A stretch of DNA of 64,000 nt from Candidatus Eiseniibacteriota bacterium (GCA_963717505.1 OY970342.1:2880001-2944000); one strand, 5' to 3'; shown: positions 16,092 through 48,924, counted from the first letter of the stretch. Numbers and translations: made by a program. The notes: generated by a model from the letters alone, not told the origin.

Positions 16092-16181
16092 CTGGCGTCC
16101 CCAACCATCGAGAATTCGAACCGCCTGATCGGCTGGTTGCGGGGGATGGATGGGCTCAAGCAGGATCTCAAGACCCCCTGA
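16092..16181 (+). repeat. att-like unit R1 (tRNA-Glu 3'-end copy + peptide-coding tail)
   Basis: CTGGCGTCCCCAAC-CATCGA-GAATTCGAAC..., translating LASPTIENSNRLIGWLRGMDGLKQDLKTP*. Confidence 0.8.
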
Positions 16182-25590: not shown

Positions 25591-28008
25591 CTACCGCCCG
25601 GGGCTGGCTCTGCTCATGCCCTCGAACAAAGCCAGAATGCGCTTGTACTCGTCCAGCCAGCTGTCCGCGTGCGAGAAGTTGTGTCGATCGAGCGGGTACG
25701 GAGCCAGCGTCACCTCGTCCTTGTGCAGTTCGATCAGCCGCTGGTAGAGCCGCACCGAGTCCTCGAACAGGACGTTGTCGTCGAGCATCCCGTGGCAGAT
25801 GAGCAGCGGACCCGCGAGGCCTTCGGCGAACTCGATGGGGGATGACCTGCGATAGGCGAGGCTGTCCACTTGCGGCGTGTTGAGGATGGCCGCGGTGTAG
25901 CCGTGGTTGTACTGCGACCAGTCGGTGACTGGACGCAACGCGGCGCCGGCATGGAAAACGTCGGGCTCTTTGAACATCGCCATCAGCGCCATGAAGCCGC
26001 CGTACGAGCCGCCGTAGATGCCGACTCGGCGCTCGTCGCCGCCATGCTCGCGCACCAGCCACCGCACCCCGTCCACCAGGTCCTCCAGCTCGGGCGTGCC
26101 CATCCGGCGATAGATCGCGGTACGCCAGTCGCGGCCGTAGCCCTGCGAGGCGCGGTAGTCCATGTCGAGCACGACGTAGCCGCGCTCGGTCAGCAAGTGG
26201 TGGAACATCTGCTCGCGGAAGTAGTACGGAAACTGGAGCTGGGTGTTCTGCAGGTAGCCGGCGCCGTGCACGAACATCACGATCGGATGGAGCCCCGTGG
26301 TATCGGCGGGCAGGTAGAGACGCGACCAGATCGGCGCTGCGCCGTGACTCGACGGCACCGCCACGATGCGTGGCTCCGGCCACTGGATCGCCTGGTACTC
26401 GGCGGTGCGCGTGTCCGTGAGCTCGCGCAGTGCGCCGCCGGAGGAAGCGCACACCGCGAGCTGCGTGGGCGTGTGTGTCGCAGAGTGCTGAACCCACAGC
26501 TTAGTGCCGTCCGGCGAAAGACCGAACGCGCTGCAGCCCTGGAGCGGCGTGAGCCGAGCGAGGGGACCGCCCGTGCTCGGCACGCGATAGACGTCGTACG
26601 CGTACGGCGCCTCGGCGTTGGACAGCGCGTAGATCCAGCGTCCGTCGGGAGAGACCTCGGGCGAGGACACCTCGAAACTTCCGCTGGTGAGCGCGACCGC
26701 GGGACTTCCGGGCACTTTCGCGTAGAGGTGCGAATAGCCAGTTTCCTCGGATAGGAACCAGAACCGCTTGCCGTCCGGCATCCAACCGGTCTGGTTGTGG
26801 CCCCAGTTCACCCAGGCGCTGTCGGTGAGCCGATGCTCGGGCCTTAGTGCGTGCTTTTCGAGGTCCACGGTCGCGAGCCAGCGGTCCTTGTGGTCGTGAG
26901 CGGTGAACCGCACCAGGGCTTCAGTGCCCTGCGGATTCCACCAGATCGCGGATACATCGAGCGGGCGTTCCTTGGGTTCGGACGACCCGGCACCGGCGCT
27001 GTCGGGTTTCGCCTTGCTGGTGTCGGGCGCGTCGGACTTGCGCTCGCGCTGGTTCTCCGCGCGCACGCTCGCCAGCATGTCGGCCTTGATCCCCGGCAGT
27101 GGCGCGTACGCGAGCTTGTGCCGCGTACGCTGCTCCAGGTCTACGAGCCATAGCGTCTCGGGCGCCGGCCCGCTCCGTCCCACGCGCGTGCGCGTTTCCT
27201 CGACTTCCTCGTAGCCCGATTCGGTCACGTACATCGGCATCTTGCCGACGCGGCCCGCGTCGTAGCTCTTGGCCGTGGTCACGGCAAAGACCCAGCGGCC
27301 GGTGGGCGAGATTTCAGTCTGAGTCAGCACCACGTCGTCGCCCACATACACCGGCAGCGGCGAGCGACTGGGATCGGAGCGACGCAGGAACTCAGCGTGG
27401 CTCTTGAGCGAGTCGCGGTCGGCACGGTCGCGTGCGAGCGTTGCGATCTGCCGGAGCTGCATCCGCTCTAGATCGTTGGTCTTATTCTCGTCGGGGTCCT
27501 TGCCGGCTACCACCATCGCAGCCGGGCCGGTCACGCGACTGGCCAGGTCGTACGCGTACCAGTCGTTCCCGATGCGGAACAGCACCCGCGCCCCGTCGGA
27601 CGAGAATCGAGGCGCGGCCTCCGTCACGGTACTGCGAGTGACTTGGGTGAGTTTCCGGTTCCCCAGCTCACGCACGAACAGGTCTCCATTGCGGATGAAC
27701 GCCGCGCGCTTTCTCGCGGGGTCGAAGACCGGGTTCTGCGCGTCGAGGTCGGCGAGATCCGCGGGCGGGACCGGCCGGTATGCGCCCCCGGATGCCGCCA
27801 CTCGGTGGAGGTCGCGCACCGGCGAGCCGGGGCGCTTGAGGCTGAACAGGATCGAGCGTCCGTCCAGCGACCAGTAGGGTCGTTCCACCGGCGGCCCGAT
27901 CCAGTCCGGGTCGGCCATGATGCGTTCGAGCGTGAGGGGTGCCGCGTGCGCCGGAGATGCGAGCAGGGAGACGGCCAGTGTGGTGATGAGCCACGGGACA
28001 CAGCGCAT
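25591..28008 (-). CDS. S9 family peptidase (DPP IV/prolyl oligopeptidase-like)
   Basis: Signal peptide, propeller region, GGSYGG nucleophile, HGMLDDNV and catalytic His (DRHNF). Confidence 0.92.
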   Translation of the reverse strand: MRCVPWLITTLAVSLLASPAHAAPLTLERIMADPDWIGPPVERPYWSLDGRSILFSLKRPGSPVRDLHRVAASGGAYRPVPPADLADLDAQNPVFDPARKRAAFIRNGDLFVRELGNRKLTQVTRSTVTEAAPRFSSDGARVLFRIGNDWYAYDLASRVTGPAAMVVAGKDPDENKTNDLERMQLRQIATLARDRADRDSLKSHAEFLRRSDPSRSPLPVYVGDDVVLTQTEISPTGRWVFAVTTAKSYDAGRVGKMPMYVTESGYEEVEETRTRVGRSGPAPETLWLVDLEQRTRHKLAYAPLPGIKADMLASVRAENQRERKSDAPDTSKAKPDSAGAGSSEPKERPLDVSAIWWNPQGTEALVRFTAHDHKDRWLATVDLEKHALRPEHRLTDSAWVNWGHNQTGWMPDGKRFWFLSEETGYSHLYAKVPGSPAVALTSGSFEVSSPEVSPDGRWIYALSNAEAPYAYDVYRVPSTGGPLARLTPLQGCSAFGLSPDGTKLWVQHSATHTPTQLAVCASSGGALRELTDTRTAEYQAIQWPEPRIVAVPSSHGAAPIWSRLYLPADTTGLHPIVMFVHGAGYLQNTQLQFPYYFREQMFHHLLTERGYVVLDMDYRASQGYGRDWRTAIYRRMGTPELEDLVDGVRWLVREHGGDERRVGIYGGSYGGFMALMAMFKEPDVFHAGAALRPVTDWSQYNHGYTAAILNTPQVDSLAYRRSSPIEFAEGLAGPLLICHGMLDDNVLFEDSVRLYQRLIELHKDEVTLAPYPLDRHNFSHADSWLDEYKRILALFEGMSRASPGR

Positions 28009-28066
28009 GGGGCGCGAGGATACTTCAACCTGGACGGCGAAGTCTGCCCCTGACAGTCTCCGCTAC

Positions 28067-29158
28067 ATGAAGCTTCTCTGCTGCTTGCTGGTCTTGTCGG
28101 TCTCGCTCTCGAAGTCGTTCGGTGATGGCGGCGCCGGCGGTGCTGGTGCGAAGGCGGTGGCCGCGAGCGGGGTCGACACGCTGTTCCTGCCCGAGCCGGT
28201 CCAGGTCGAGAGCACTGCGGCCTCTGCTCCTCGTGGACATGTGAGTTGCGGGCTGAGCGATAGGTCCGGGCGCCTGTGGTTCGGCACTTCGGAAGGGCTC
28301 ATGCGGTTCGATGGGCGGAGCTTTACGCGGTTCATCGAGGTGGACAGCCTGCGCGATGCGCGTGGCTACGCGAATTGGGAGCACATCTACTCCATCTTCG
28401 AAGACCGAGCCGGGCACATCTGGTTCGGCGCCCCGAACGGCGTGTACCGGTACGATGGAAACACGTTCACCTGCTGGGCAATCCCGGCGCGCGACTTCAA
28501 GGACCGGAACGACTACCCGAGCCCCGAGAGCCGGTTGTCGAACCCGCTGCCTCCCACTGCGGTCATAAGTATTCTGCAGGATCGGCACGGAGCTCTCTGG
28601 TTCGGCACCTGGGGAGGTGGTGTCAATCGCTACGACGGCACCTCGCTGACCAACCTCTCGGAGAAGAATGGTCTCTGCAGCAATGTGGTCCAGAGCATTC
28701 TCGAGGACCGCAAGGGGAGCATGTGGTTTGCAACCCGGGGCGGTGGCGTGTGTCGCTACGATTGGCGTTCCTTCACGACATACGCGACGCCAGGGGACGC
28801 AATCAGCTATCACGCGTTCTTCATTGCGGCCGACACGGCGGGCGTGCTGTGGACCGGCACGGTCGGTGGAGGTCTGCGTCGGTTCGATGGAACGGGCTTC
28901 ATCCCGGTCGCGGAGCCCGATCTCGTGAACGTCACCTGCATGCTGCAACGCCGCACCGGCGAGCGCTGGTACGGCACCAGCTCTGGTGTCTACCGATACG
29001 ACGGTCGAGCCTTGACCCGCTTCGCAGCGAAGGACGGCACGGGCAGCAATTCCGTCTGGGCCATCGTGGAAGACAAGAGCGGCAGCCTCTGGTTCGGCAC
29101 GCGGAAGGGCCTGTGCCGCTACGACGGGCGGTCGTTCACCCGCTTTCCGGAAGAGTGA
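28067..29158 (+). CDS. Secreted two-component-regulator-propeller (Reg_prop) repeat protein
   Basis: Repeats of SIxEDxxGxLWFGT-GGVxRYDG. No kinase domain. Confidence 0.8.
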   Translation: MKLLCCLLVLSVSLSKSFGDGGAGGAGAKAVAASGVDTLFLPEPVQVESTAASAPRGHVSCGLSDRSGRLWFGTSEGLMRFDGRSFTRFIEVDSLRDARGYANWEHIYSIFEDRAGHIWFGAPNGVYRYDGNTFTCWAIPARDFKDRNDYPSPESRLSNPLPPTAVISILQDRHGALWFGTWGGGVNRYDGTSLTNLSEKNGLCSNVVQSILEDRKGSMWFATRGGGVCRYDWRSFTTYATPGDAISYHAFFIAADTAGVLWTGTVGGGLRRFDGTGFIPVAEPDLVNVTCMLQRRTGERWYGTSSGVYRYDGRALTRFAAKDGTGSNSVWAIVEDKSGSLWFGTRKGLCRYDGRSFTRFPEE

Positions 29159-29222
29159 GGGTTCCGACACGCAATGGAATCGGGACAGGCGGCTGTGCGC
29201 GACGTGAAAGTGCCGGAACCGA

Positions 29223-30398
29223 TCAGCGGAGCCGCACAAACCGACGCGACTGCCGTTCCGGGCCGGATCCGGCCACAAGCAGGTAAAGCCCCGCGGGTGC
29301 AGGCCGGCCACTCGAATCGAGTCCGTCCCAGCTCAGCTCGTGCGGCCCGGGCGTGAACACGTCGTCTGCGATCAGGCGCAGCCTGCGACCCTCGACGTCG
29401 ACGACCTCGACGCGCATGCGCCGTGGGTCGGGCACGTCGAGCCGGAACCGGACCGTGCCGCGATTCGGGTTCGGCATGGGCGCCGAGAGCCGTGCGCCGC
29501 TGGGCTGCGGGTCCGGAAGGCCCGCAACCGTGTTCTCGACGACGAAGTACTGCTGTCCCGGAACGCCATCGAGATCCACGCTGGATGCAGGACCAAGGGC
29601 GCAGGTGCCGGGCGGAACCGGGCCGAGGAGCTGGTTGGAGATCTCGACATCCAGCCCCGACGGGCGCGCGAGCAGCACGCAGATCCGGAACGGACCGGTG
29701 GGATCCCCGAGCGCGGCTAGCGGCACGGCCCATTCGAGTCCGCTCGTGACCCCGCTTCCCGAAGACGCGTTGCAACCTGCGTCGACGCCTCCTGTGTTCG
29801 AGCGATCGAAGCTGGCGAGGATGCCGTGGGGATTGACCGCGCCGGGGCCGACGAGAGTGCCTGGGGGCCCCAGCACCCCCCGGCCGAGGAAGGAGCCTGT
29901 GGCGCCGCCGACAGACGGCAGTTCCGCGAAGTAGGCCGGAAACCCGGCGGCGTCGCGGGCCACGGCGAGCCAGTAGTCGGGGGCGAACTCGGCGTCGAAC
30001 GTGAGCTCCGCCACGCTTTGAAGCGTCACCCAATCCTGCGGGCTCGAGTTGTCGTCGCTCAGGCTGTTCTGGCCGCCGGATCGCGTGTCGACGAACACAT
30101 GCAGCTGCGCCACCGGGTAGAGGAACTCGCTGTAGAAGCGATTAAGGCTGCCCGCGATGAACAGGAACAGCTTGCCGTCCTCGACCAGCACGTACGCGGC
30201 GTCCAGCTCGGATCCGGGGGAGATTTCGTACTGGTAGTCGCCGAGACTCGTCTGTGTCGATTGGACGCTCAACGGCTCGCCATAGGTGGCGTCGAGGATC
30301 CCATCCACCACCGGCGCAGCACTGGAGTTGGCGACCGGAGCGAGCAGCGCCACGCCGTAGAGGAGGACGCGAAGTCGATGCCCTGATGCCGTCCCCAT
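29223..30398 (-). CDS. Secreted protein with C-terminal FlgD-Ig/T9SS-like domain
   Basis: Signal peptide and PNP...WDGLDSSGRPAPAGLYLL tail. Confidence 0.75.
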   Translation of the reverse strand: MGTASGHRLRVLLYGVALLAPVANSSAAPVVDGILDATYGEPLSVQSTQTSLGDYQYEISPGSELDAAYVLVEDGKLFLFIAGSLNRFYSEFLYPVAQLHVFVDTRSGGQNSLSDDNSSPQDWVTLQSVAELTFDAEFAPDYWLAVARDAAGFPAYFAELPSVGGATGSFLGRGVLGPPGTLVGPGAVNPHGILASFDRSNTGGVDAGCNASSGSGVTSGLEWAVPLAALGDPTGPFRICVLLARPSGLDVEISNQLLGPVPPGTCALGPASSVDLDGVPGQQYFVVENTVAGLPDPQPSGARLSAPMPNPNRGTVRFRLDVPDPRRMRVEVVDVEGRRLRLIADDVFTPGPHELSWDGLDSSGRPAPAGLYLLVAGSGPERQSRRFVRLR

Positions 30399-30504
30399 GC
30401 GGGCGAGGTTATCAGATGAGCGAGCGGGCCGAACCGACGAACTACGATGTTGCTCGCCTCCGATCGGTGGCTTCTCGGCGGAGGCGGCGCGGCGCCGATC
30501 CCAT

Positions 30505-30591
30505 GTGGCGTCCTCAACGGGCGCGGATTCGAACCGCTTGGCGGCGTGGCTTCGCGGGATGGATGTGCTCCGTCGTGTTTTGGCTGTGTAG
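30505..30591 (+). repeat. att-like unit R2
   Basis: GTGGCGTCCTCAACG-GGCGC-GGATTCGAAC..., translating VASSTGADSNRLAAWLRGMDVLRRVLAV*. Confidence 0.85.
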
Positions 30592-30601
30592 CTGTCCCCG
30601 C

Positions 30602-30630
30602 TTGCGCATAGTAACGGCCCGCGTTACTAT
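30602..30630 (+). promoter_or_regulatory. higBA promoter with HigA-type palindromic operator
   Basis: TTGCGC-N17-TACTAT. Perfect 9-bp inverted repeat ATAGTAACG-N5-CGTTACTAT (30608-30630). The GTG start is 6 nt after the -10 box, so the transcript is likely leaderless. Confidence 0.75.
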
Positions 30631-30636
30631 CGAACG

Positions 30637-30918
30637 GTGATTCGGAGCTTCCGAGGCAAGGACGCCCACCGGCTCTTCAACCGCAGCCCTGTCCGGAGGC
30701 TCGGGGCGGACGTTCAGCGCATCGCGCTACGCAAGCTAAGGCAGCTCGATGCTGCGGTTGCGCTGGAAGACCTTCGCGTTCCACCGGGCAATCGCCTCGA
30801 GAGACTCCGCGGTGATCGGGCCGGGGAGTGGAGCATCCGGATCAACGACCAGTGGCGCATCTGCTTCCGCTGGGAGGGAGGCGATGCTCATGACGTGGAG
30901 ATCGTGGATTACCACTGA
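30637..30918 (+). CDS. higB: HigB (RelE-family) toxin
   Basis: MIRSF...DLRVPPGNRLERLRGDRAGEWSIRINDQWRICF...EIVDYH. Confidence 0.95.
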   Translation: MIRSFRGKDAHRLFNRSPVRRLGADVQRIALRKLRQLDAAVALEDLRVPPGNRLERLRGDRAGEWSIRINDQWRICFRWEGGDAHDVEIVDYH

Positions 30919-30930
30919 ACTGGAGAGCTC

Positions 30931-31236
30931 ATGGCGACCAAGAAACTGACGCCGATTCATCCGGGAGAGATCCTGCTGGAGGACTTTCTCGAGCCACTGG
31001 GCTTGTCTCAGTACCGGCTAGCAAAGGGACTCAACGTTCCGGCCAGGAGAATCAACGAGATCGTCCTTAGGAAGCGCGCGATTACCGCCGACACGGCCTT
31101 GCGACTGGCGCGTTTCTTCGGAACCTCTGATCGGTTCTGGCTGAATCTCCAGGCAGCCTATGATCTCGATGTCGAGCGTGATCGCCTGGCTGGGCGGCTC
31201 CAGCGTGAGGTGGAAGTGCTGCGGCGCGCGAGCTAA
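30931..31236 (+). CDS. higA: HigA antitoxin (HTH)
   Basis: PIHPGEILLEDFL...RINEIV...ITADTALRLARFFGTS..FWLNLQAAYDL. Confidence 0.95.
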   Translation: MATKKLTPIHPGEILLEDFLEPLGLSQYRLAKGLNVPARRINEIVLRKRAITADTALRLARFFGTSDRFWLNLQAAYDLDVERDRLAGRLQREVEVLRRAS

Positions 31237-31242
31237 GAGTCG

Positions 31243-31335
31243 CTGGCGTCCCCAACGGGCGTGGATTCGAACCACCTCATCGGTTGGCTTCACGGAATGT
31301 ATTCCCTCCAGAGGTCTCTGGAGACTGCTGCGTGA
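31243..31335 (+). repeat. att-like unit R3
   Basis: CTGGCGTCCCCAACG-GGCGT-GGATTCGAAC..., translating LASPTGVDSNHLIGWLHGMYSLQRSLETAA*. Confidence 0.9.
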
Positions 31336-31382
31336 GGGGTTGCCAGACACCACTTCCCGGGAGATCGCCTGTTGTGCCCCAT

Positions 31383-32105
31383 CTAGTGGCGAGTTGGCTC
31401 GGATGGCGATGGTCGGGGCTTCGTGACCTGGATGATGAGCGGCTTGGTTGTCACGTAGCCTCGCCAAAGTCGCTCGAGTGGGAGATCTTTGCCCCGCAGT
31501 GGCAGGAATTCGCCGACTCCGAGTTCGAAGCGAATGCCGTATCGCCCCGCCTCTCCGAAGCACTGGCCGACGGCGCCATTACGATCGACGACGTCTTGAC
31601 GATCAGCGCCGCGCACGGGAGCTGCCGAAAACACATCCCAATCGCAGGCTGGACCAAGGTTCATGTCGAAGCGCCCTCGACCGAACCTGACGGGGTACAC
31701 AAGGCTATCGCCTGGACTCAGTGAGACGAAATCGGACTTGGAAAGTGTCCGCCCCAGGGAGTAGGCAATGCTTGGCTCCAAGACGCATCGGCGAGCCGAT
31801 GTAGCCCCCCAGACACGGACACGGAGATCCCATTCCCCTTCCTCTAGCATCTGCTCTGGCTTCGGGCGAAGGAGGACCAACGTATCCGACCCCGCGTTCA
31901 AGAACACGAGATTGAGATCGATCGCTTCACCCGCTGCGAAAACCGTGGTCGGTGTTCGGACGACCAACTGAAGCGACTGGGAGGTCGTCGCAGGCGTGAC
32001 AGGAGTGGCGAGCAACAGCCAAAGGATCATGGTAATGATCAAGGCAACGCTCACTTTGCAGTCGCCGGGTTCCATCGGGAACGACGAGGGATTGAAGGAT
32101 CCCAT
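31383..32105 (-). CDS. Hypothetical secreted protein (cassette gene, start uncertain)
   Basis: Hydrophobic signal-like segment and a beta-rich Ig-like region. Fills the R3-R4 interval. Confidence 0.6.
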   Translation of the reverse strand: MGSFNPSSFPMEPGDCKVSVALIITMILWLLLATPVTPATTSQSLQLVVRTPTTVFAAGEAIDLNLVFLNAGSDTLVLLRPKPEQMLEEGEWDLRVRVWGATSARRCVLEPSIAYSLGRTLSKSDFVSLSPGDSLVYPVRFGRGRFDMNLGPACDWDVFSAAPVRGADRQDVVDRNGAVGQCFGEAGRYGIRFELGVGEFLPLRGKDLPLERLWRGYVTTKPLIIQVTKPRPSPSEPTRH

Positions 32106-32159
32106 CTAAACGTACGTCGGGAGTGTGCGCTTCCCGCGAGCCTGAAACCAGCGTGATTG

Positions 32160-32245
32160 ATGGCGTCCCCAACGGTCGTTACTTCGACCGGCTGGTCGCC
32201 TGGCGCGGGGAGATGGACGGACTCCGGCAGGTGCTGGCAGCGTGA
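32160..32245 (+). repeat. att-like unit R4 (1-nt deletion)
   Basis: ATGGCGTCCCCAACG-GTCGT-TACTTCGAC.... With one base restored it reads MASPTVVTS(N)RLVAWRGEMDGLRQVLAA*. Confidence 0.85.
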
Positions 32246-32267
32246 GGTTTCTCGACCTCCGAAGTCC

Positions 32268-32915
32268 CTAGTGAAACACGTTTCGATTTACGAGCAACAG
32301 GTCCTCCGACCAGTCGTCCTCGCTGGATGCGATGTTCGACCAGATTCGCAGATAGAGGAAGGCCTTGCCGCCCTTCTCCGGTTCGTAGTCTGTCTTCTCG
32401 ATCCCGATCACGAGCGGATCCTCACCCAATTCAGGGATCTGGCGTAGCAAGTCGGCGCGTCCCGCCAACTCGACCCGCCCATCCTCGAAAACTTCCCAGA
32501 CGCCAGTGGAGTCGATGGTGAACGTCCGTATCAGGTCCTCTGAGAACGGAAGGTGGACCGCATTCAGTGTCAGGTACCCGCTGAGGTCGAAGGGAGGCAA
32601 CGTCTCCGACTTCTGCGTCCGAGCCCCGGTCATGGCATTCTCCGAGTAGGCGACGTCGCGAAGTGGAATCTGCTCCACAACGCTAAGATCGGACTTCCGC
32701 ACCTTCTCGAGTCGGAGCGTTCGCCTGTGCGAGTAGTAGGAGGGCGGATACTCGCTGATGGTCACGTACCGGAAGAAGTGGTCGGCGTTCTCTCCGAGGA
32801 GCGTCTGCCGCCGCCACGTTCCAGATCCGGGCGTGGCCGCAGCATCCGCTGCGATCAAGATGCTGATTGCGATGACGAGATACCTCACGGGCTGGTTATC
32901 GGCAGCGCAAGGCAT
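32268..32915 (-). CDS. Hypothetical secreted protein (cassette gene)
   Basis: Signal-like RYLVIAISILIAADAAA. No family recognised. Confidence 0.6.
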   Translation of the reverse strand: MPCAADNQPVRYLVIAISILIAADAAATPGSGTWRRQTLLGENADHFFRYVTISEYPPSYYSHRRTLRLEKVRKSDLSVVEQIPLRDVAYSENAMTGARTQKSETLPPFDLSGYLTLNAVHLPFSEDLIRTFTIDSTGVWEVFEDGRVELAGRADLLRQIPELGEDPLVIGIEKTDYEPEKGGKAFLYLRIWSNIASSEDDWSEDLLLVNRNVFH

Positions 32916-32998
32916 TCGCAGGAGACGAACCAGAGCCGCTTTCGAGGGGATGCGCTAGCGCTGATATCAGGCCCGGTGGAGGTGGTAGCCTGCGGTTC

Positions 32999-33910
32999 AT
33001 GAATCAGTTGCGAGTGTTGCTGACGGTGCTGGTTACGTTAGTGGTGCTCCCTACAGGCGCCGGGGCCTCGGCAGAGTCGCAAGTCGAATCGCTGTGGAGG
33101 GGCGTTTTCGAGGGCGACTCACTGTTCGTCCGCGCTGCCTGGATTCCGACAGTCGGTTCCGCGTCGTGCTATCAGAACGAAACCGGCGGCGCCGATACGA
33201 GTGAAGTGCGCCGGAAGTACGTCGAATACAGCATCGAGGACCTTCGCGGGAATGTCTGGCACCGCGGCGTGCTCTCAGAACCGGAGTCCCAGCAGTTCTG
33301 CTGCGATGAGGTATCCGCCGAGGTGGCCCCCTGGCCAGACAGATTGATCGTTAAGCTGACCACTCTCGGCTGGTACTGCGAACCTGCGGGGAACTGCCTG
33401 GCGTCGCGATTCATCCATGTCGCTGGCCCGGACTCGGTGGCAGAGAGCGCTTGGAGCGCTTGGGATGAAATCCCCTGGAACCCCGCGAGAGGCAGTTACT
33501 TCGACGCATGGGTGATCGAAGGGTGCTTTCAGTACCCGATGCGGCTGGAGGCCCGGTTGCAGGGCCACGCTCTCGAATTCAAGCCGACGTTTCCGCCTGG
33601 CGTGACGGAAGGCGATTTGCTCGAGAAGGAAGTCTACAAGGGCGAGGAGTTCGCGTACTGCCTACGGCCATTCAGCCCGACGAAGCCCACGTCGGTCGCC
33701 TGGTATCTGAAGTCAGACTCGAAGTCACCCGAGCGACTGATCATCCAACCGGGCGAGTCGATCGAGATCGTGTCGGCCGTGGTTCGAGCGGAGCGATCTG
33801 AAGGTGGGGAGCTTGCGCCCAAGATCGTCCAAGTAGGTGTCCGAGTGGCGGGCAGGCAAGGCTTCCTGACGCGGGTCGACTTGAAGGCTCTGGGCTTCAT
33901 CGGACTCTGA
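32999..33910 (+). CDS. Hypothetical secreted Cys-containing protein (cassette gene)
   Basis: Signal peptide and GGAGGT RBS. No family recognised. Confidence 0.65.
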   Translation: MNQLRVLLTVLVTLVVLPTGAGASAESQVESLWRGVFEGDSLFVRAAWIPTVGSASCYQNETGGADTSEVRRKYVEYSIEDLRGNVWHRGVLSEPESQQFCCDEVSAEVAPWPDRLIVKLTTLGWYCEPAGNCLASRFIHVAGPDSVAESAWSAWDEIPWNPARGSYFDAWVIEGCFQYPMRLEARLQGHALEFKPTFPPGVTEGDLLEKEVYKGEEFAYCLRPFSPTKPTSVAWYLKSDSKSPERLIIQPGESIEIVSAVVRAERSEGGELAPKIVQVGVRVAGRQGFLTRVDLKALGFIGL

Positions 33911-33968
33911 ACGTTCGGTGTCCGTCGACCAAGAAGGCTTGCCGTCACTGAGCCAGAGCTCAGGAATA

Positions 33969-34055
33969 CTGGCGTCCCCAACGGGCGTGGATTCGAACTC
34001 GCTGATGGGCTGGCTCCGTGAGATGGACGCGCTCCGGCAGGTGCTCGCTGCGTAG
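33969..34055 (+). repeat. att-like unit R5
   Basis: CTGGCGTCCCCAACG-GGCGT-GGATTCGAAC..., translating LASPTGVDSNSLMGWLREMDALRQVLAA*. Confidence 0.9.
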
Positions 34056-34168
34056 AGCCGAGTTCAGTACCGAACCCGTAGAGCGCCGTCCGTGCGATCA
34101 TGTACGATAGGTTGCCTTCGGGCAGCCTCAGAAATCGACTCTGCCTCCTGCGAATGGAGTCGTTCACT

Positions 34169-35119
34169 ATGCTCCGCACCCTGTTGCGCTGCGTCCTGCT
34201 CGCGCTCGTCGCGTCGTTGGGCGCGCGGCATGCACAAGCTCAAGCCCCAACGTTTCTGCTGCAGTGGGGCACCTCGGGAACTGGCGATGGACAGTTTCAG
34301 TCACCCTTCGGGATCGCCGTGGATCCGACCGGCTGCGTTTACGTTTGTGACCAGTACAACAATCGCATTCAGAAGTTCAGCCCAGACGGAGCATTTATCA
34401 CGAAGTGGGGCACGTACGGGCTCGACCCAGGGCAATTCAACATCCCACATTCCATTGGAGTTGACGCAATGGGGCACGTCGCAGTCGTCGACGTCGCTGA
34501 TCGGATTCAGGTTTTTACCTCCGACGGTGTTCTTATGCATTCGTGGGTGCAGCCCGACCATGCGTCTCCGACGATTCGGGATGTGACCGTTGACGCGATG
34601 GGTGTGATCTACATAGCCGACTATCAGGCCGAACGGATCGAGAAGTACAGTCTCGCGGGTGACTTTCTCGGGTCGGTAGGAGACGGCATCGATATTCCGC
34701 CGGGGAGCGTCGCACTCGATCCCATGGGCAACATATACGTGGGCCGGTACGGAAAGATTCGCCAGATCGTTAAGTTCAGTTCAGATGGTGGACAGCTGAC
34801 GAGCTTCGGGCAGGAGGGAGATGGCGACGGGCAGTTCCAGTCGCCGGTCGGGTTGGCGGCGAGCGACGATCTGGCCTACGTGGTCGACTACCAGAATTAC
34901 CGCGTGTTGTTCTTCACGAGCACAGGCGAGTTCCTGGGCAAATGGGGAAGCCCGGGCGCGGGTCCCGGTGAATTCGAGCAGCCGGTTCGCACCGCGCTGG
35001 CGAGCGACGGCGCGGTGTACGTCGTCGATCTACTCAACAACCGAATTCAGAAGTTCGCCCATGTTGTGACCCCTGTTCTTCGCCGGTCGTGGGGAGCGTT
35101 GAAAGCTCAGTATCGGTAG
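34169..35119 (+). CDS. Secreted NHL-repeat beta-propeller protein with SWGxLKxxYR tail
   Basis: GQFQSPxGIAVD..G.VYV.D..NNRIQKF repeats. C-terminus TPVLRRSWGALKAQYR. Confidence 0.88.
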   Translation: MLRTLLRCVLLALVASLGARHAQAQAPTFLLQWGTSGTGDGQFQSPFGIAVDPTGCVYVCDQYNNRIQKFSPDGAFITKWGTYGLDPGQFNIPHSIGVDAMGHVAVVDVADRIQVFTSDGVLMHSWVQPDHASPTIRDVTVDAMGVIYIADYQAERIEKYSLAGDFLGSVGDGIDIPPGSVALDPMGNIYVGRYGKIRQIVKFSSDGGQLTSFGQEGDGDGQFQSPVGLAASDDLAYVVDYQNYRVLFFTSTGEFLGKWGSPGAGPGEFEQPVRTALASDGAVYVVDLLNNRIQKFAHVVTPVLRRSWGALKAQYR

Positions 35120-35246
35120 CGAGACCCGTCGATGTGAAAGTCGCGTCGTCGCTCCCGCGCTCGCCGGATTCGAGAACCAGAACCGACCGCGCAACCCGCT
35201 GTGGGTCCGCGAAACGCCCGCAAGTGCCAGGGCCACAATGGCGGAA

Positions 35247-35270
35247 CTGGCGTCCCCAACGGGATTCGAA
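35247..35270 (+). repeat. attR-like 24-bp direct repeat of the tRNA-Glu 3' end (R6)
   Basis: CTGGCGTCCCCAACGGGATTCGAA, identical to 48848-48871. Confidence 0.92.
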
Positions 35271-35350
35271 TCGGAGGACCGCACGAAAGCACCGAATCCC
35301 ACGAGCGAGCAAACGAACGACGACAACGAGTTGCGGCCGATCGCTGAGGA

Positions 35351-35408
35351 CGATAGTGGTCGATAGTTAGCTTTGCTGCTCGATAGTTCCCGCACAGTTC
35401 CCGCACAG
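35351..35408. repeat. Short direct repeats near attR (possible integrase arm-type sites)
   Basis: CGATAGT at 35351, 35361 and 35381. Tandem AGTTCCCGCAC at 35385 and 35396. Confidence 0.5.
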
Positions 35409-35640
35409 TGTCCGCCGCAGAAGCCCCAGGTCCGCTACCTGCCCACCCGGCGACTGGGACTCGTGAGAGGCGGCTCCCCTTGGGCGTGAGAGGCTCCAGC
35501 GTGCCAGCCTGCCGGACGGTCGGATGGGGCCCCATTTCCTTTGCCAGGAGTCCCGTTCCAGAAAACTCAAGGAACGAGGGCGGCGAGCGTCGCCAGTGCC
35601 TCCGCGTTCACGTCGTAGGGGTTCTCTTTGCTCTCGTTGC

Positions 35641-36488: not shown

Positions 36489-38108
36489 CTACCGGGCGAC
36501 CACGATCTTGAGACGCTCGTCGTGGCCTGCCCACCGCGCGAGCAGAAAGTAGAGTCCGTTCGGCACCGGCCGGCCGCCATCGTCGCACCCGTTCCAATCC
36601 GTCGACTGATGTCCGGCCGCGAAAGCGCCAGGCGCCAAAGTCCGCAACCTGCGGCCCGTGAGGTCGTAGATCTCGAGCACAGCTTCGTCGGCGCTCCCTT
36701 CGAGCCCTCTGGCTGTCGCCAACGTCACCGCCAACTTCTCACCGCGGCACGGCAGCGGCCACGCCGCCAGCGATCGGGTCGGAAGGTGCGGGACCTCCAC
36801 GGACGCCACCTGATCCTTTCCGACAAACAGGTATGCCTGGCCGGCGGCCGCGCCGCCAGCGTTGTTGATGGGCCCGCCGAGAAGCAGGTCGTCGACCTCG
36901 TCGCCGTTCACGTCTCCGGCCCCAGCGACGGCCGTGCCGAGCATCTCACGTAGGGATCCGATCACGATGAGATCTGCAACAGCATCGACTCCAGGGCCAC
37001 CGTGGTAGACACGGACGCTCCCGGCGCCCGCCGCGTCACCGGGCGCTCCGATGACCATGTCGGCGAACCCGTCGCCGTTCACGTCTCCAGCGCCAGCGAT
37101 GCTACCGCCTCCCGTCAGCGTCAGATCGGCGACTTCATCAGCTTCGGGCCCACCGTAGTAGAGGAACGCGTTGCCGCCGCCGACGAGAAGATCGTCGTAC
37201 CCATCGCCGTTAACATCACCAGCACCAGCGACGGCCTGTCCGAAGACATAGGCCCCGACTTCATCGAGAACGAGGTCGGCGATCGCATCGGCCGCCGACC
37301 CGCCGTAGAAGACGTAGGCTCGATCGCTGCCAGGCCCGTTCTCGGGGGGGGCGCCAACGATCACATCGTCGTAGCCATCGCCATTCACGTCCCCTGCTCC
37401 CGCAGTGGACCTCCCGAAGTTGTCGCCCGCCTGTTCTCCCGACAGGACGAGATCCGCCGTATCGTCCATCGGGTTCCCACCATGAAAGAGGTAGGCCTGA
37501 CCGGCGTCGGTGCCGCCGGCGTCGTTCCGATAGGCACCAACGATCAGATCCGCGAAGCCATCACCATTGAAGTCTCCTGCTCCTGCGACCGAGTATCCGA
37601 ACCAGTCGGTGTCGCCGATGCCGGTCAATGTGAGATCGGCAATCGCATCCGCTGCAGGTCCTCCTAAGAAGACGTACGCCCTCCCGACATTGGTGCCCCC
37701 GGCCCCGTCATTGTTGGGAGCACCGACGATCAGGTCGGCGAATCCATCGCTGTTCACGTCCGCGCTCGCCACTGAATAGCCAAAGGCCGAACGATCGGGT
37801 CCGGTGAGGGTGAGATCGGCAGTGGCATCGGCGCTAGGCCCCCCGAAGTAGAGATCGACGCTTCCGGCCTCGGGCCCACCGGCATCGTTGCCGAATGCGC
37901 CGATGATCAGATCGGCGAATCCATCGCCGTTTACGTCACCTGCACCCACAGCGGAGCCGAACCAGTCGCCCGGCGCAGTGCCAGTGAAAGTGAGATGGGC
38001 ACCGTGGACGGTCGGAGGCCCGGGTAGCGCCGAGAACGCCGTTGAGGCGAGCACCGAGACGGCGACCGCAATGATGAGGAAAGCGAGAACCGCTGACGAC
38101 TTTGGCAT
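36489..38108 (-). CDS. FG-GAP/integrin-alpha repeat protein with FlgD-Ig/T9SS-like tail
   Basis: About seven (FG..VAGA)GDVNGDG.DD.IVGA repeats and WNG.DDGGRPVPNGLYF tail. Confidence 0.88.
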   Translation of the reverse strand: MPKSSAVLAFLIIAVAVSVLASTAFSALPGPPTVHGAHLTFTGTAPGDWFGSAVGAGDVNGDGFADLIIGAFGNDAGGPEAGSVDLYFGGPSADATADLTLTGPDRSAFGYSVASADVNSDGFADLIVGAPNNDGAGGTNVGRAYVFLGGPAADAIADLTLTGIGDTDWFGYSVAGAGDFNGDGFADLIVGAYRNDAGGTDAGQAYLFHGGNPMDDTADLVLSGEQAGDNFGRSTAGAGDVNGDGYDDVIVGAPPENGPGSDRAYVFYGGSAADAIADLVLDEVGAYVFGQAVAGAGDVNGDGYDDLLVGGGNAFLYYGGPEADEVADLTLTGGGSIAGAGDVNGDGFADMVIGAPGDAAGAGSVRVYHGGPGVDAVADLIVIGSLREMLGTAVAGAGDVNGDEVDDLLLGGPINNAGGAAAGQAYLFVGKDQVASVEVPHLPTRSLAAWPLPCRGEKLAVTLATARGLEGSADEAVLEIYDLTGRRLRTLAPGAFAAGHQSTDWNGCDDGGRPVPNGLYFLLARWAGHDERLKIVVAR

Positions 38109-38385: not shown

Positions 38386-41300
38386 ATGCCCACGATGCCC
38401 ATATCGTGCTTCCGCCCGTCATGGACGACGGTCACAGCCACCGCCACTTCCCTGCTGGTGGCCCTCACTCTGGGACTGTTCACGCCTCCTGCGCCGTCTA
38501 GTGCCCAGGAACTGAACCCGGAGTTCCCCGTTACCGACGGCACTGTCTGGGCCATGACTGTGTTGGACAGCACGCTCTTCATTGGGGGTTCATTTACGTA
38601 CGTGGGCCGAAATACAGGCGGGTTTGTCGGTGTTGATTCCGCATCGGGCGAAGTGGCTGCGGGATCGGTCCGTGTCGATGGGCACGTGTACGCCAGTGCT
38701 CCAGATGGGCAAGGCGGTCACTATCTGGGTGGCTCGTTTAGGAGTATTTCCGGAGTCCCTAGGGATCGGCTAGCACATGTTCGATCCGATGGAACGCTAG
38801 GCGATTGGAACCCTGGAGCAGACGGCAATGTACGGGCCCTGGCGGTGACCGGTTCGACTGTCTATGTCGGTGGCTCCTTCACGACTATTGGAGGGCAGCA
38901 ACGGAACCGCATTGCTGCTCTCGACGCCACCACCGGGTTGGCCACGAGCTGGAATCCAGGGGCCAACGGAACAGTGAACACAGTCGCGGCGAGTGGGCCG
39001 ACCCTTTACGTCGGCGGAGCATTTAGTAACGCGGCCGGCGTAACGCGAAACAACCTGGCGGCGATTGATGTGGTGACAGGTGCTGCGACTATCTGGAACC
39101 CAGGCGCGAACCAACCTGTATCGGTTTTGGCTGTGAGGGGGCCCACGGTCTACGCGGGGGGGGCCTTCACAAGTATTGGTGGACAGTCACGAGACCGCGT
39201 CGCCGCACTCAATACAGTAGGCGGTCAGGCCAGGAGCTGGAATCCTGGTGCGAGTGGCCTCGTAGCCGCGCTGGGGTTTCGGGGATCACTAGTTTACGTG
39301 GGCGGCAGCTTCTATAACATCGGAAGCCAGGCCCGGCAATCACTAGCTGAGATCGACTCGGTGAGCGGTCTGGCCACATCGTGGAATCCCGCCATCGAAA
39401 GCGGCTCTCTCCCTGGAGTAGTGGGAGCCATCTTAGTTAGTGAGGCATCGGTCTACGTTGGCGGAGCATTTACCAGCGCGGGTGGGCAGGGGCGCTTGAA
39501 CGTGGCTGAGATAGACGCCGCGACGGGCCTTGCCACGAGCTGGAGCCCGCACACCAGTGGTCAGGTGAACACCATTTCCTGGAGCGGGTCAACAGTCTAT
39601 GTCGGTGGAATCTTCACAAGCATTGGTGGAGTCAAACGTAACCGTCTCGCCGCAATTGACATCACGACCGGCTTCACGACTGGATGGGACCCTGGAGCGA
39701 ACTACAACGTCATGGCATTAGAAGGGAAGGGCTCGACAATCTACGTCGGTGGCTACTTCACCGGCATAGCCTCAGAGTCGCGAAGCAACATCGCCGCTCT
39801 CGACGCCTCCACTGGGCTGGCCACAAATTGGAGCCCTGAGGCAAGCGGACCCGTCTACACCATCGCTCTCAGGGGTTCGACGGTCTATGTCGGTGGCGAC
39901 TTCACCAGTATTGGTGGGCAGTCACGAAATCGCATTGCAGCAATCGACTCTGCCACCGGTCTGCCTACGAGTTGGGACCCCGGAGCAAACGGAGACGTGC
40001 GGACTATTGCGATGGGTGACTCGACTGTCTATGCAGGCGGCTTCTTCACCAGCATAGGAGGAGAGCCACGAAGCAGGATTGCCGAGCTTGACGCCACCAC
40101 CGGGTTGGCTACGAGTTGGAACCCAGCCGCTGGTGGGGAGTGGTTCACCGTGCAGACCCTCGCGTTGAGCGGCCCGACGGTCTATGTCGGCGGCATCTTC
40201 ACGAGCATGGGTGGGCAGCCGCGATCCAACCTCGCCGCCATCGATGCCACTACAGGCCTGGCCAACAACTGGAATCCCCAGGCGGATGGCATGGTCTACG
40301 TTCTGAAAGTTGCTGGACCGACGGTCTATTCGGGTGGGTCCTTCTCTACGATCGGCGGACAACAGCGCAACGGCCTCGCCGCACTTGTTGGCACCACTGG
40401 ACTGGCTACGAGCTGGTCAGCAGACGCAGATAGTTTCGTGTCCATCCTTGCTGTGACCGATGATGCGGTCTACGCCGGTGGCTCATTCAATTCAATCGAC
40501 GGCAGAAGCAGGCCCAACTTGGCGCAATTTCTTGGACCGACACCCATACCAGTTCCGAGGGCTGTTGTTTCGGACATCCAAATTGCAGAAGGCGATGTGG
40601 GGGCGGCCCAACTACTCTTCACCGTGACGTTGTCAGAACCGTTCGACCAGCCGGTGACTGTGGACTTCAGCACTGTCGACGGTTCAGCTACAGCTGCGGA
40701 CGACTACGTAGCGATCTCGGGGACGCTCACAATCCCTCCTCACGAACCAAGTGGGGTAATCTCAGTGAGCGTTGTTGGCGATGGCGTGTACGAGCCGGAT
40801 GAAACACTCTTACTCAGCCTGAGCAACCCCACAAACGCCGAAATTGGCGATTTCCAAGCCGTAGGCACGATCATTAACGATGATCCGATTCCGACGATTG
40901 CCGCCGTCGCCCCCGTCGAAACCCTTTCTCCGACCACGCCATCCCTAGCCATCCCGGTGACGATTGCCCGCGGGGACCCTTCGGTGATTCTCGGGTACTC
41001 GGTGCGGCTGCATCTCACCGATCTGACGATTACTGGCGGCGGGATCGCTGGGTTTGTCGAGGGAACATTCCTTCAAGCTGGCAATCCTCTAACGAGCTTT
41101 CAGGTGGTCGACAACGGTGGTGGATCGTACACGGTGGACAACGTGACGCTGGGCATGCCTTGCGGATCGACCGCAACAACCGGAACCCTGTTCAGTGTTG
41201 CTGTTGGAAATGGCACGCTGGCTGGCTTCGGTTCCGTGACGATCGACCAGGCGACCGTCTACGACTGCAACAATGCTGCCTCATCGTTCGCCATCGGGCC

Positions 41301-43125
41301 ACCGGTTGCGGTCTCTATCGACTACACCCCACCGGTGGTGGCAGTAACATCGCCAAACGGTGGGGAATTCTGGCCCGAGACAATCACCTGGAACGCGACG
41401 GATGACGTCGCGATCGCGCAGTGCGATCTGCACTATTCAACTGACGACGGCACTACGTTCTCGAACGTCATCGCGCTCGATGTCCCCAACTCGGGGACGT
41501 ACGCATGGTCGCCGCCCACTACACCAAATGCGCAGGCTCGAGTTCGAGTGACCGCCTATGACGTGAACGGCAACGCCTCTAGCGATGCCAGTGATGCGAG
41601 CTTTGTTCTTGGGCAGTACGGCCTGACGGTGAGCGTGTCCAACGGTACCGTCGTTAAGTCGCCAGATTTGCCCGCGTACGACCCAGGGGTCGATGTGATG
41701 CTTACGGCGACCGCAGTGGCCGGCTTCCATTTCGTGGAATGGACCGGTGACGCGACTGGGTCCGCAAACCCCGTGACGATCACAATGGATGGCAACAAGG
41801 CCGTCACCGCGATCATCCAGGCGAACCCTCCTGTAGCACCGATCACCGCGCTATCTGCCACTCAGGTCAGAACTGGAAACGACTCCGACGGCTCAACGAA
41901 GATCCGGTTGAGCTGGCCATCAGTGCCCGCAGGCACCGTAGTCGTGGTCTATCGGGCGGGGTTTGGCTACTACCCTCGATACGACGAGCTTGGTGGTGCA
42001 GTCCCCTCGGTCCCGTCCTATCCGCCACCAACTCCGTGGAGCCCAGTAGCGGTTAGTTCGTCGGGCGAGACCGATGAGCCGCCAGGGCGGGACTTCCACT
42101 ATTACGTCGCGTTTGTCGTTGATGGGTTTGGAACCGTCTCACCGGCATCGAACCTGACCGGCGGGGCCCTGAACTACCACCTCGGCGACGTGACGAATGG
42201 CGCGACACCAGGTCAGGGCGACAACATTGTGGACATCGCAGATGTCTCGCTACTAGGAAGTCACTATGGCGCGTCGGGTGCCGAGGCAATCGCATTTGCA
42301 TACCTCGATGTCGGGCCGACCACTGATCGATCAGTGCACACGCGGCCGACAACAGACGGGCGACTCGACATTGAGGACTTGGTCTTGTTCGGACTCAACT
42401 ACGCTCAGGTGTCCGCTCCCATGGCCAATGCTCGAACGACGACAATCAAGGCCGGCGTCGATGAGTTGACATTGCTCGTGGCCGAATTGCCGCCCGATCA
42501 ATTGGAGGCGACCCTCGAACTCAGAGGCACCGGAGCCATACAGGCTCTTGCGACCACGCTGCAATGGGATCCGGCGGTAGTGGAGCCGGTCGACCATGCC
42601 GCGGGCGAATTAGTCGTGGACCAGGGTGGACTGGCACTGTCCCCGGGGCCCGGCCGCATTGACGCGACGCTTCTTGGTGCCCGGCCCATGGGGCTCTCCG
42701 GCGTTGGCGAGGTGGCTTCGATCAGGTTTCGCCGGCTGGCGCCAGGGGATCCCGCTATCGAGTTCCAGTCCGCGATCGCGCGGGATGCTCTGAATCAGGA
42801 TGTGCCACTGTCTACCACGTATGCAGCCGAAGTACCGCATGGCCCCATGGCGTACGCATTGTCACCGCCATTCCCGAATCCCTTCCGGTTAACCACGACG
42901 CTGTCCTTTGGCCTAGCGCATTCGGGAACTGTTGAGCTAGCCGTCTTTTCCGTAGACGGACGGCGGGCTCGGACGCTTCTTAGCGGGCCAATTGGCGCTG
43001 GGGACCACCGGGTGCCCTGGGACGGGCGGGACGCCCTGGGCAGCCGCGTCCCAGCCGGTATCTACTACGCGCGACTCACCACGACGCACGGCCAATTCCT
43101 ACAGAGGGTGGTCCACCTGCCATAG
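38386..43125 (+). CDS. Large secreted repeat protein: propeller repeats, Calx-beta, Ig-like, dockerin-like and cohesin-like modules, FlgD tail
   Basis: About 13 YVGGxFTSIGGQxRNxIAALDATTGLATSWNP repeats, Calx-beta (FTVTLS...GTIINDD), paired DxxxDxxD motifs, and PAGIYYARL tail. Confidence 0.85.
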   Translation: MPTMPISCFRPSWTTVTATATSLLVALTLGLFTPPAPSSAQELNPEFPVTDGTVWAMTVLDSTLFIGGSFTYVGRNTGGFVGVDSASGEVAAGSVRVDGHVYASAPDGQGGHYLGGSFRSISGVPRDRLAHVRSDGTLGDWNPGADGNVRALAVTGSTVYVGGSFTTIGGQQRNRIAALDATTGLATSWNPGANGTVNTVAASGPTLYVGGAFSNAAGVTRNNLAAIDVVTGAATIWNPGANQPVSVLAVRGPTVYAGGAFTSIGGQSRDRVAALNTVGGQARSWNPGASGLVAALGFRGSLVYVGGSFYNIGSQARQSLAEIDSVSGLATSWNPAIESGSLPGVVGAILVSEASVYVGGAFTSAGGQGRLNVAEIDAATGLATSWSPHTSGQVNTISWSGSTVYVGGIFTSIGGVKRNRLAAIDITTGFTTGWDPGANYNVMALEGKGSTIYVGGYFTGIASESRSNIAALDASTGLATNWSPEASGPVYTIALRGSTVYVGGDFTSIGGQSRNRIAAIDSATGLPTSWDPGANGDVRTIAMGDSTVYAGGFFTSIGGEPRSRIAELDATTGLATSWNPAAGGEWFTVQTLALSGPTVYVGGIFTSMGGQPRSNLAAIDATTGLANNWNPQADGMVYVLKVAGPTVYSGGSFSTIGGQQRNGLAALVGTTGLATSWSADADSFVSILAVTDDAVYAGGSFNSIDGRSRPNLAQFLGPTPIPVPRAVVSDIQIAEGDVGAAQLLFTVTLSEPFDQPVTVDFSTVDGSATAADDYVAISGTLTIPPHEPSGVISVSVVGDGVYEPDETLLLSLSNPTNAEIGDFQAVGTIINDDPIPTIAAVAPVETLSPTTPSLAIPVTIARGDPSVILGYSVRLHLTDLTITGGGIAGFVEGTFLQAGNPLTSFQVVDNGGGSYTVDNVTLGMPCGSTATTGTLFSVAVGNGTLAGFGSVTIDQATVYDCNNAASSFAIGPPVAVSIDYTPPVVAVTSPNGGEFWPETITWNATDDVAIAQCDLHYSTDDGTTFSNVIALDVPNSGTYAWSPPTTPNAQARVRVTAYDVNGNASSDASDASFVLGQYGLTVSVSNGTVVKSPDLPAYDPGVDVMLTATAVAGFHFVEWTGDATGSANPVTITMDGNKAVTAIIQANPPVAPITALSATQVRTGNDSDGSTKIRLSWPSVPAGTVVVVYRAGFGYYPRYDELGGAVPSVPSYPPPTPWSPVAVSSSGETDEPPGRDFHYYVAFVVDGFGTVSPASNLTGGALNYHLGDVTNGATPGQGDNIVDIADVSLLGSHYGASGAEAIAFAYLDVGPTTDRSVHTRPTTDGRLDIEDLVLFGLNYAQVSAPMANARTTTIKAGVDELTLLVAELPPDQLEATLELRGTGAIQALATTLQWDPAVVEPVDHAAGELVVDQGGLALSPGPGRIDATLLGARPMGLSGVGEVASIRFRRLAPGDPAIEFQSAIARDALNQDVPLSTTYAAEVPHGPMAYALSPPFPNPFRLTTTLSFGLAHSGTVELAVFSVDGRRARTLLSGPIGAGDHRVPWDGRDALGSRVPAGIYYARLTTTHGQFLQRVVHLP

Positions 43126-48848: not shown

Positions 48849-48924
<76 letters not shown>

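Follow-up and report, generated by a model that had tools for sequence, protein, structure and literature searches.

Tail-coding repeats downstream of a tRNA-Glu gene as probable scars of integrases that cross their own attachment site

Downstream of the tRNA-Glu(TTC) gene in a stretch of DNA from Candidatus Eiseniibacteriota bacterium (GCA_963717505.1 OY970342.1:2880001-2944000; 64,000 nucleotides, hereafter the window), five repeat copies, R1 to R5, start at positions 16092, 30505, 31243, 32160 and 33969. Each consists of the antisense of the 3' end of tRNA-Glu(TTC), followed by about 20 codons up to an in-frame stop. We consider it quite probable that these copies are stranded ends of integrase genes, left by successive integrations into tRNA-Glu of elements whose integrase crosses its own attachment site, and that decay has since removed the remainder. 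The link between this tail and an integrase is drawn wholly from relatives and metagenomes, because the window holds no such integrase.

A tandem array of tRNA-Glu-derived repeats

The features of the array are as follows, in window coordinates unless stated otherwise.

16092..16181, plus strand: R1, core of 13 nt identical to the tRNA, integrase tail LASPTIENSNRLIGWLRGMDGLKQDLKTP-stop
30505..30591, plus strand: R2, core with one mismatch, tail ...WLRGMDVLRRVLAV-stop, the frame reading VASSTGADSNRLAAWLRGMDVLRRVLAV-stop
30637-30918 and 30931-31236, plus strand: HigB-like toxin and HTH antitoxin, sole genes of the 738-bp R2-R3 unit
31243..31335, plus strand: R3, core, tail ...WLHGMYSLQRSLETAA-stop, the frame reading LASPTGVDSNHLIGWLHGMYSLQRSLETAA-stop
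32160..32245, plus strand: R4, decayed copy, second half LVAWRGEMDGLRQVLAA-stop in frame
33909..33968, plus strand: possible integrase-linker remnant directly upstream of R5 (ERSVSVDQEGLPSLSQSSGI versus ERTLTVPAQ..., a weak likeness)
33969..34055, plus strand: R5, core of 16 nt identical to the tRNA, tail LASPTGVDSNSLMGWLREMDALRQVLAA-stop
35247..35270, plus strand: R6, direct repeat (24 nt) comprising the tRNA-Glu 3' end and the preceding C, without integrase tail
48849..48924, minus strand: tRNA-Glu(TTC), the attB target and sole tRNA gene of the window
Genome 2670142-2670225, minus strand, outside the window: R7, tail ...WLREMDALRHALAA-stop, adjoining a tRNA-Gln and a damaged tRNA-Glu(CTC)

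The tRNA-derived part of the repeats comprises CCA, the acceptor strand and the start of the T-stem, with 13-16 nt of identity between R copies and tRNA. In R1-R5, about 70 nt follow this tRNA-like part up to the stop codon. An imperfect dyad surrounds a 7-nt spacer in the R copies and has no match in the tRNA. The 16-mer TGGCGTCCCCAACGGG, which is the reverse complement of the tRNA-Glu 3' end, has six matches in the window at two or fewer mismatches (30506, 31244, 32161, 33970, 35248 and 48849, the last being tRNA-Glu itself), compared with 0.10 expected by chance, and six were reached in 0 of 100 shuffles. At R1, the match to the tRNA-Glu 3' end is shorter than this 16-mer.

All of R1-R6 lie on the plus strand, downstream of the minus-strand tRNA-Glu(TTC). 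R1 is the outermost copy, 17 nt beyond the stop codon of a phosphodiesterase gene, and R6 forms the distal boundary of a 13.6-kb integrase-less island that extends to tRNA-Glu. A six-frame scan of the 4.16-Mb genome for the tail motif returned the five copies of the window and R7, and no more. The core of R7 matches tRNA-Glu(CTC), and its tail is the same helix as that of R1-R5.

The frames and ends which the first-pass annotation had assigned to R1, R2, R3 and R5 were confirmed, with the exception of R4: a 1-nt deletion within its T-loop-like part shifts the frame, and only its second half is in the tail frame. The in-frame open stretch upstream of R1, R2, R3 and R5 measures 2-48 codons (the frameshifted R4 not counted), so these copies are detached. 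The upper value belongs to R2, where likeness to the integrase linker is weak; at R3 an in-frame TAA lies two codons upstream. The detached tails lack a start codon, as had been noticed before for most copies, and they lack an upstream ORF as well. In the antisense direction, tRNA-Glu itself reads LASPTGFEPVSPP-stop (48848-48889), or ...NGLASPTGFEPVSPP-stop in the frame of the R copies, in agreement with the earlier reading. This frame is open for 21 codons upstream, to a stop at 48782-48784, and the neighbouring DUF2971 gene (47922-48755) is on the strand opposite to it.

The inter-repeat units are short (738, 917, 1809 and 1278 bp) and the genes between the R copies are cargo-like. Besides the toxin-antitoxin pair of the R2-R3 unit, there are two ORFs without a Pfam family in R3-R5 and an NHL-repeat protein in R5-R6. 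The stop codon of the HigA antitoxin is 7 nt upstream of R3, and addiction by the HigB/HTH antitoxin pair may account for the survival of this unit despite decay. R1 and R2 are 14.4 kb apart, and the intervening genes are native-like in composition. The NHL-repeat gene (34100-35119) lies between two copies of the repeat, as does its counterpart in the relative G017 (L058:9543-10499; 43% identity), and with respect to the repeats the two genes point in opposite directions. In a synteny comparison, the upstream flank of the tRNA (49069-52573) was common to seven relatives; the phosphodiesterase/DEAD flank was not found beside tRNA-Glu among the relatives' loci examined. At least five insertions into tRNA-Glu have thus taken place, and the DNA downstream of this gene appears to be a composite island over 32.7 kb.

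Two repetitive ORFs occupy part of the island between R6 and the tRNA. One, of 1579 codons (38386-43125), contains eight diverged 144-nt tandem units (family D1; repeats 38851-40481). Beside it, a minus-strand ORF (36489-38108) contains seven repeats with a common Asp/Gly-rich end (family D2), which may be FG-GAP/VCBS-like. Both ORFs resemble genes for large surface proteins that the island carries as cargo.

A tRNA-Glu(CTC)-like gene with an internal duplication of about 33 nt, from the anticodon arm to the T arm, is located 1 kb from R7 on the plus strand (L028:5169-5290; genome about 2669168-2669289). It received no ARAGORN call and a partial Rfam tRNA match of 32.9 bits, and it looks like an integration or excision scar.

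Coding signature of the repeats

To distinguish conservation as protein from conservation as DNA, 23-24 copies from this genome and its relatives were analyzed by codon position. In codons 11-27, third positions are the most variable, as illustrated by 0.41, 0 and 1.61 bits at the three positions of an invariant Leu, and codon periodicity is confined to this part. Codons 1-10, on the other hand, derive from the tRNA acceptor stem and T-loop, have low third-position entropy and are conserved as DNA, with a pN/pS of 1.14. Pairwise pN/pS of the tail is 0.57 in frame, versus 1.01 and 1.42 in the shifted frames. This agrees with the protein-like pattern with synonymous changes that had been proposed from the window alone. 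Moreover, none of 23 copies has an in-frame stop in its first 81 nt, compared with 3-14 of 23 in the other five frames, and a stop is reached within 28-33 codons in 23 of 24 copies, so that the earlier observation that conservation of R1-R5 ends at an in-frame stop extends to the wider set. From these pN/pS, stop and codon-position patterns we conclude that the tail is or once was translated under purifying selection, and that the core is a DNA site.

These data bear directly on the reading that conservation concerns only the nucleic acid of the repeat, DNA or RNA (integrase arm sites, an attC-like site, a REP element or terminator, or a tRNA- or tmRNA-like RNA), and that its peptide pattern is a chance product of the tRNA origin. 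The first 10 codons, with their tRNA origin, DNA-type conservation and pN/pS above 1, are what such a reading predicts. It does not, however, account for a three-base periodicity and low pN/pS in the proposed frame alone, nor for the stop kept in nearly all copies. A search of 15900-35500 on both strands gave no Rfam family match at E ≤ 1, and RNAalifold found 0 consensus pairs in 21 copies. Furthermore, the same tail stands behind a different core at tRNA-Glu(CTC), and in several records it is continuous with integrase coding sequence. We therefore regard conservation purely as nucleic acid as very improbable.

More specific candidates were rejected as well. The structured-RNA and attC readings were dropped on the Rfam and RNAalifold nulls, and an integron cassette array on the lack of a PF00589 match in the window together with the lack of consensus pairs in the 21 copies. 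A tmRNA-like reading, with a tRNA-like end and an ...LAA peptide, was also rejected: the peptide strand is opposite to the CCA end, and the real tmRNA is at genome 1691166-1691516.

Integrases carrying or losing the tail

A profile of 24 tails was searched against 1.84 billion representative proteins and matched 768 of them at E ≤ 1e-3. Most of the 150 matches listed are short ORFs from gene calling that close with the motif, the median length being 65.5 aa among the 126 C-terminal cases. Seven of these 150 contain tyrosine-recombinase catalytic motifs upstream of the tail. In P0154, P0085, P0032, P0122, P0044 and P0149, catalytic motifs, linker, LASPT and tail are aligned in one frame, in the order HDLRRSAVRNL...GHKTRSVFDRY, a linker of about 55 residues, LASPT and tail. 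P0154 (375 aa) carries the tail to its end, ...LASPTGADSNWLTTWLKGFEALRLALAAAEYRSI. P0085 is named in its source as a hypothetical protein of a Candidatus Rokuibacteriota MAG; its metagenome locus (L117) consists of a decayed integrase half, linker, core and tail in a single DNA frame, P0085 and L117 being themselves decayed. Full-length genes in this attP form were found on short metagenome contigs only, and a circular form was not directly observed. As a scan of genome contigs with P0154 gave no relative, the full-length attP-form integrase stands without genomic context.

Homologues of P0085 are present in 48 of 89 genomes of the family to which the window belongs, and P0085 has no match in the genome under study (G000). 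Among the best 30 loci of such homologues, 20 have a tRNA and seven have tRNA-Glu(TTC), tRNA-Glu always being antisense to the integrase. The search suggested at the outset, for recombinases that end in ASPTGFEP at tRNA-Glu, was successful: an SPTGFEP ending occurs in 19 of the 120 full-length homologues listed, including 18 of the best 20, and the integrases of L062, L063 and L064 end in LASPTGFEPVSPP-stop or ...VLPP-stop within tRNA-Glu, the frame of L062 being open for 407 codons upstream. PF00589 is present in all 120 full-length homologues listed. An intact example is the integrase of L092 (405 aa; PF00589 at 66.8 bits, with a cut-off of 27.1), upstream of which HTH_17, AAA_25/DnaB-like and HTH_3 proteins are encoded. 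In L093, a tail at 15073-15153, a tRNA-Glu at 19820-19895 and a broken integrase gene beside the tRNA delimit one integrated unit of 4.7 kb.

Within the order of the window, the tail profile matched 43 of 102 genomes at 77 places (E ≤ 1e-5; tallies that include the unpublished genome G026). These tails are usually located downstream of tRNA-Glu and antisense to it. At least 200 open codons were found at five of the 77 places, of which four were inspected (G017, G092, G075 and G057; the fifth is in G026), and none of these four long-frame copies is an intact integrase joined to a tail. The 496-codon frame of G017 was rejected as an integrase, being the antisense shadow of the NHL gene, and the long frames in G092, G075 and G057 were rejected because they are without integrase motifs.

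The proposal that a recombinase gene reads through attP consequently stands in part. It applies to relatives, where the attP form has the helix and Ala-Ala tail and the integrated form ends in ...GFEPVSPP, and it does not apply to the window, which is without an integrase.

Absence of the integrase from this genome

Neither PF00589 nor PF00239 has a match in the window or near R7, and all six integrase matches in the genome are away from both. Likewise, tblastn with five integrases against the window and the genome returned tails and tRNA antisense only. Six ORFs of the backbone region (L092 and L093) and five ORFs of the arrays (L049 and L060) had no match in the window at E ≤ 1e-3 nor in the genome at E ≤ 1e-5. 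Save for the weak likeness at R5 and R2, no resemblance to an integrase is seen in the flanks upstream of R1-R5. Since integrase and backbone genes are absent, what remains in the window is only a tandem array of detached relics at a tRNA hot spot. The copies in the window would thus be fossils, and no switch should be able to operate at this locus.

The latter point concerns the first-pass annotation's principal idea when taken literally for this locus: an integration-controlled degron switch operating at the site itself, with a recombinase alternating between a tagged and a tRNA-tailed form. Its appeal lies in an architecture that exists in relatives, in the frequent AA end (90 of 126 C-terminal cases listed), in a host ssrA tag that ends in ALAA, and in the precedent of mycobacteriophage BPs, where PMC4557955 describes the removal of a tag by integration. 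At the locus itself, however, the window is devoid of a recombinase gene, only 21 codons are open upstream in the antisense frame of tRNA-Glu, and the tails are without start codon or upstream ORF. As the integrase gene is absent, the idea is refuted for this genome, and we give a switch at this site hardly any chance.

Predicted properties of the tail

An AlphaFold2 model of P0154 (mean pLDDT 72.5; alignment of 40 rows, about 25 of which cover the tail) predicts a helix at residues 352-373 (block pLDDT 75-90) after a disordered linker at 302-350 (pLDDT < 50). The conserved residues L12, W15, L16, M19, L22 and L/I26 are situated on one face of this predicted helix, in line with the amphipathic spacing that had been read from the repeats.

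With regard to the end of the tail, the motif lies at most 8 residues from the C-terminus in 126 of the 148 non-repetitive tail matches among those listed. Of these 126 C-terminal cases, 110 have Ala as their last residue; AA closes 90 of them and VA 11. Because the profile used for the search closes with AA, the figure for AA may be a little too high. Among the tails collected from genomes without such selection, AA is the ending in 11 of 23. R3, R4, R5 and R7 have this ending; R1 ends in KTP and R2 in LAV. The host tmRNA encodes the tag ANEQFALAA.

When integrase body and tail were modelled as a complex, with an alignment custom-made for this analysis, ipSAE was 0.33 versus 0.02 for the best control, weakly suggesting docking (contact agreement between runs of at least 59%; partner pLDDT of at least 52). 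Of 80 solved complexes, 58 attain the mark used for docking, as do 2 of 110 mismatched pairs; the range at 0.60 or under holds only 7 of the 80 solved complexes together with both passing mismatched pairs.

Judged from sequence and models, it is plausible that the tail acts as an ssrA-like degron, as a regulatory helix, or as both in this element family. The conservation of the predicted amphipathic helix suggests something more than a degron.

History of the array

According to the explanation that we favour, R1-R5 and R7 would be the tRNA-distal junctions of successive integrations of small elements into tRNA-Glu. These elements would encode a tyrosine integrase whose gene spans its own attachment site, the last 30 or so codons comprising some 5-10 codons of antisense tRNA 3' end (the crossover core, LASPT...) and then about 20 helix codons, usually closing with Ala-Ala. 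Recombination inside the core would join the integrase body to the tRNA antisense, yielding the ending ...LASPTGFEPVSPP-stop, and the original tail would be stranded at the far end of the element. Newer elements would push older ones outwards, while decay would strip out the integrase gene and the bulk of the cargo, so that detached tails remain as an array. In the excised form of the integrase, the tail would provide a property which the integrated form lacks, namely ssrA-like instability and/or a regulatory helix. We infer the order of these events, the inertness of the copies and the property conferred by the tail from the arrangement of the array and its relatives.

As described in PMC5704250, it is well established that decayed, integrase-less elements can form tandem arrays in which the att sites are retained (CIME/accretion). 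The model of integration, decay and accretion fits the array, and leaves unexplained how tidy the junctions are, for instance at the HigA stop codon just before R3. Random deletion accounts for such junctions less well than a site-specific assembly of units without integrase. Because of this tidiness, we keep as the main rival the explanation that the inter-repeat units are living mini-elements without integrase, CIME- or cassette-like, which would be mobilised and stacked by the integrase of a full-length element acting in trans, and for which the R copies would be functional recombination sites. The units have one or two genes within 738-1809 bp, the HigBA pair fills R2-R3, and an NHL gene is found between two copies both in the window and in L058. 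Dense arrays also occur in relatives, with seven copies within 15 kb beside tRNA-Glu in L113 and three each in L049 and L114, and the CIME concept, including mobilisation in cis, is treated as established in PMC5704250. Against living units, a cognate integrase was not found in this genome, and the frameshift of R4 and the loss of the tail from R6 show that decay is under way. In addition, the opposite orientation and modest identity of the two NHL genes do not suggest one mobile cassette, and a DNA site needs no protein-type conservation of the tail. On balance, we think it rather unlikely that the units are alive, and prefer stepwise integration followed by decay.

For the element family at large, it is possible, and we propose it tentatively, that the att site serves as a protein switch: a short-lived, integration-competent free form with helix and AA end would be converted by integration into a stable ...GFEPVSPP form with altered directionality. 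If true, such a switch would represent in bacteria a milder version of what archaeal 'suicidal' integrases do, and would combine control of directionality and of dosage without a separate factor. The tails would then constitute a fossil record of integrations into tRNA-Glu, and the switch family would be widespread in a high-GC lineage without cultured members as well as in metagenomes from soil.

Comparison with known systems

The closest parallel is the myxophage Mx8, whose attP lies within int; integration creates a new 3' end of int and alters the specificity of the enzyme, as described in PMC6070905. Mx8 IntP (phage form) and IntX (prophage form), like the integrases of the relatives, represent a tyrosine integrase with attP in its own coding sequence. 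The Int frame of the Mx8 record includes a stretch resembling antisense tRNA, ...ARSTGLEPVLLG... (...STGLEPV...), which we infer from its sequence to be the core. Mx8 Int is nonetheless 24% identical to the present integrases over 245 residues (pairwise E 0.029), a likeness in recombinase fold only, and the tails are unlike: about 110 residues follow the core in Mx8, versus about 20 in the present family, and the Mx8 tail ends in ...SPSAT, that of the present family usually in Ala-Ala. Mx8 is moreover a 49.5-kb phage, whereas L092, one intact relative, is a small element with HTH, AAA_25/DnaB-like and HTH_17 genes. The principle is thus already known from Mx8, and the present family adds a conserved helix and an Ala-Ala end. 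In the literature searched, which lay largely outside subscription journals, no other described bacterial integrase gene overlapping attP was found.

Mycobacteriophages with attP inside a gene, which had been named as the precedent, are a valid parallel for the removal of a tag by integration; Mx8 IntP/IntX is nearer, since the gene split in the mycobacteriophages is the repressor. In BPs and in clusters G, I, N and P, integration removes a 33-residue extension with an ssrA-like tag and so gives rise to the stable prophage form, and the BPs integrase too carries something C-terminal (both as described in PMC4557955). In the present family, by contrast, it is the integrase gene that is split, and a conserved amphipathic helix precedes the AA end, unlike in BPs. 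The C-terminal feature of the BPs integrase is said to be a degradation tag. In BPs, proteolysis and the effect on lysogeny were demonstrated experimentally, whereas the present family is known from sequence.

Integrases of the SSV type (SSV1, pTN3 and pT26-2) have their att site within the ORF, so that integration partitions the gene, and are called exclusive to archaea in the account of PMC8371274. They share with the present family an att site inside the integrase ORF, but in them the split divides Int(N) from the catalytic Int(C), with loss of enzyme activity. In the present family, HDLRRS, GHKT and FDRY are all upstream of the core, and only the last 20-30 residues or so, behind a disordered linker, are exchanged. 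A Pfam scan of the L092 integrase returned PF00589 only, not the SSV-type PF16795. With respect to the statement in PMC8371274, the present family qualifies the claim that integrases disrupted by their own integration are exclusively archaeal.

Finally, R1-R6 resemble CIME arrays, described in PMC5704250 as integrase-less, att-bounded segments beside a target tRNA that result from integration, decay and re-integration. Unlike those of CIMEs, the present att repeats also carry coding sequence for the integrase tail, and the scars are therefore unusually long (about 87 nt) and datable. Peptide-like repeats beside tRNA genes, now called as hundreds of orphan small ORFs (the 768 representative proteins matched above), can accordingly be read as integration scars, and the rewriting of an integrase's own C-terminus by integration, the Mx8 principle, would be common in a little-studied bacterial lineage. 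For the genome under study, the practical meaning is modest.

Integrases with other frames and targets

Some integrases enter tRNA-Glu(TTC) in a different frame. Those of L069/L094, L078/L095 and L066 (P0173, P0174, P0179 and P0184) end in ...WRPQRDSNPCRRRERAVS-stop, and the R copies bridge both integrase frames by a 5-nt insertion relative to the tRNA. Homologous integrases from the same bacterial family abut or overlap other tRNA genes in antisense (L067, L071-L074, L077, L080, L083, L085, L087 and L090), their targets being tRNA-Leu(CAA/TAG/TAA), tRNA-SeC, tRNA-Lys and tRNA-Ala. It may be a general trait of this integrase group that the gene reads into its target tRNA.

In one metagenome ORF, P0029 (169 aa), a Cys-rich stretch is joined to a LASPT...WLREMDSLR...TAA tail. 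This stretch presumably resembles the zinc ribbon of large serine recombinases, and P0029 may have arisen as a chimera or where different elements adjoin.
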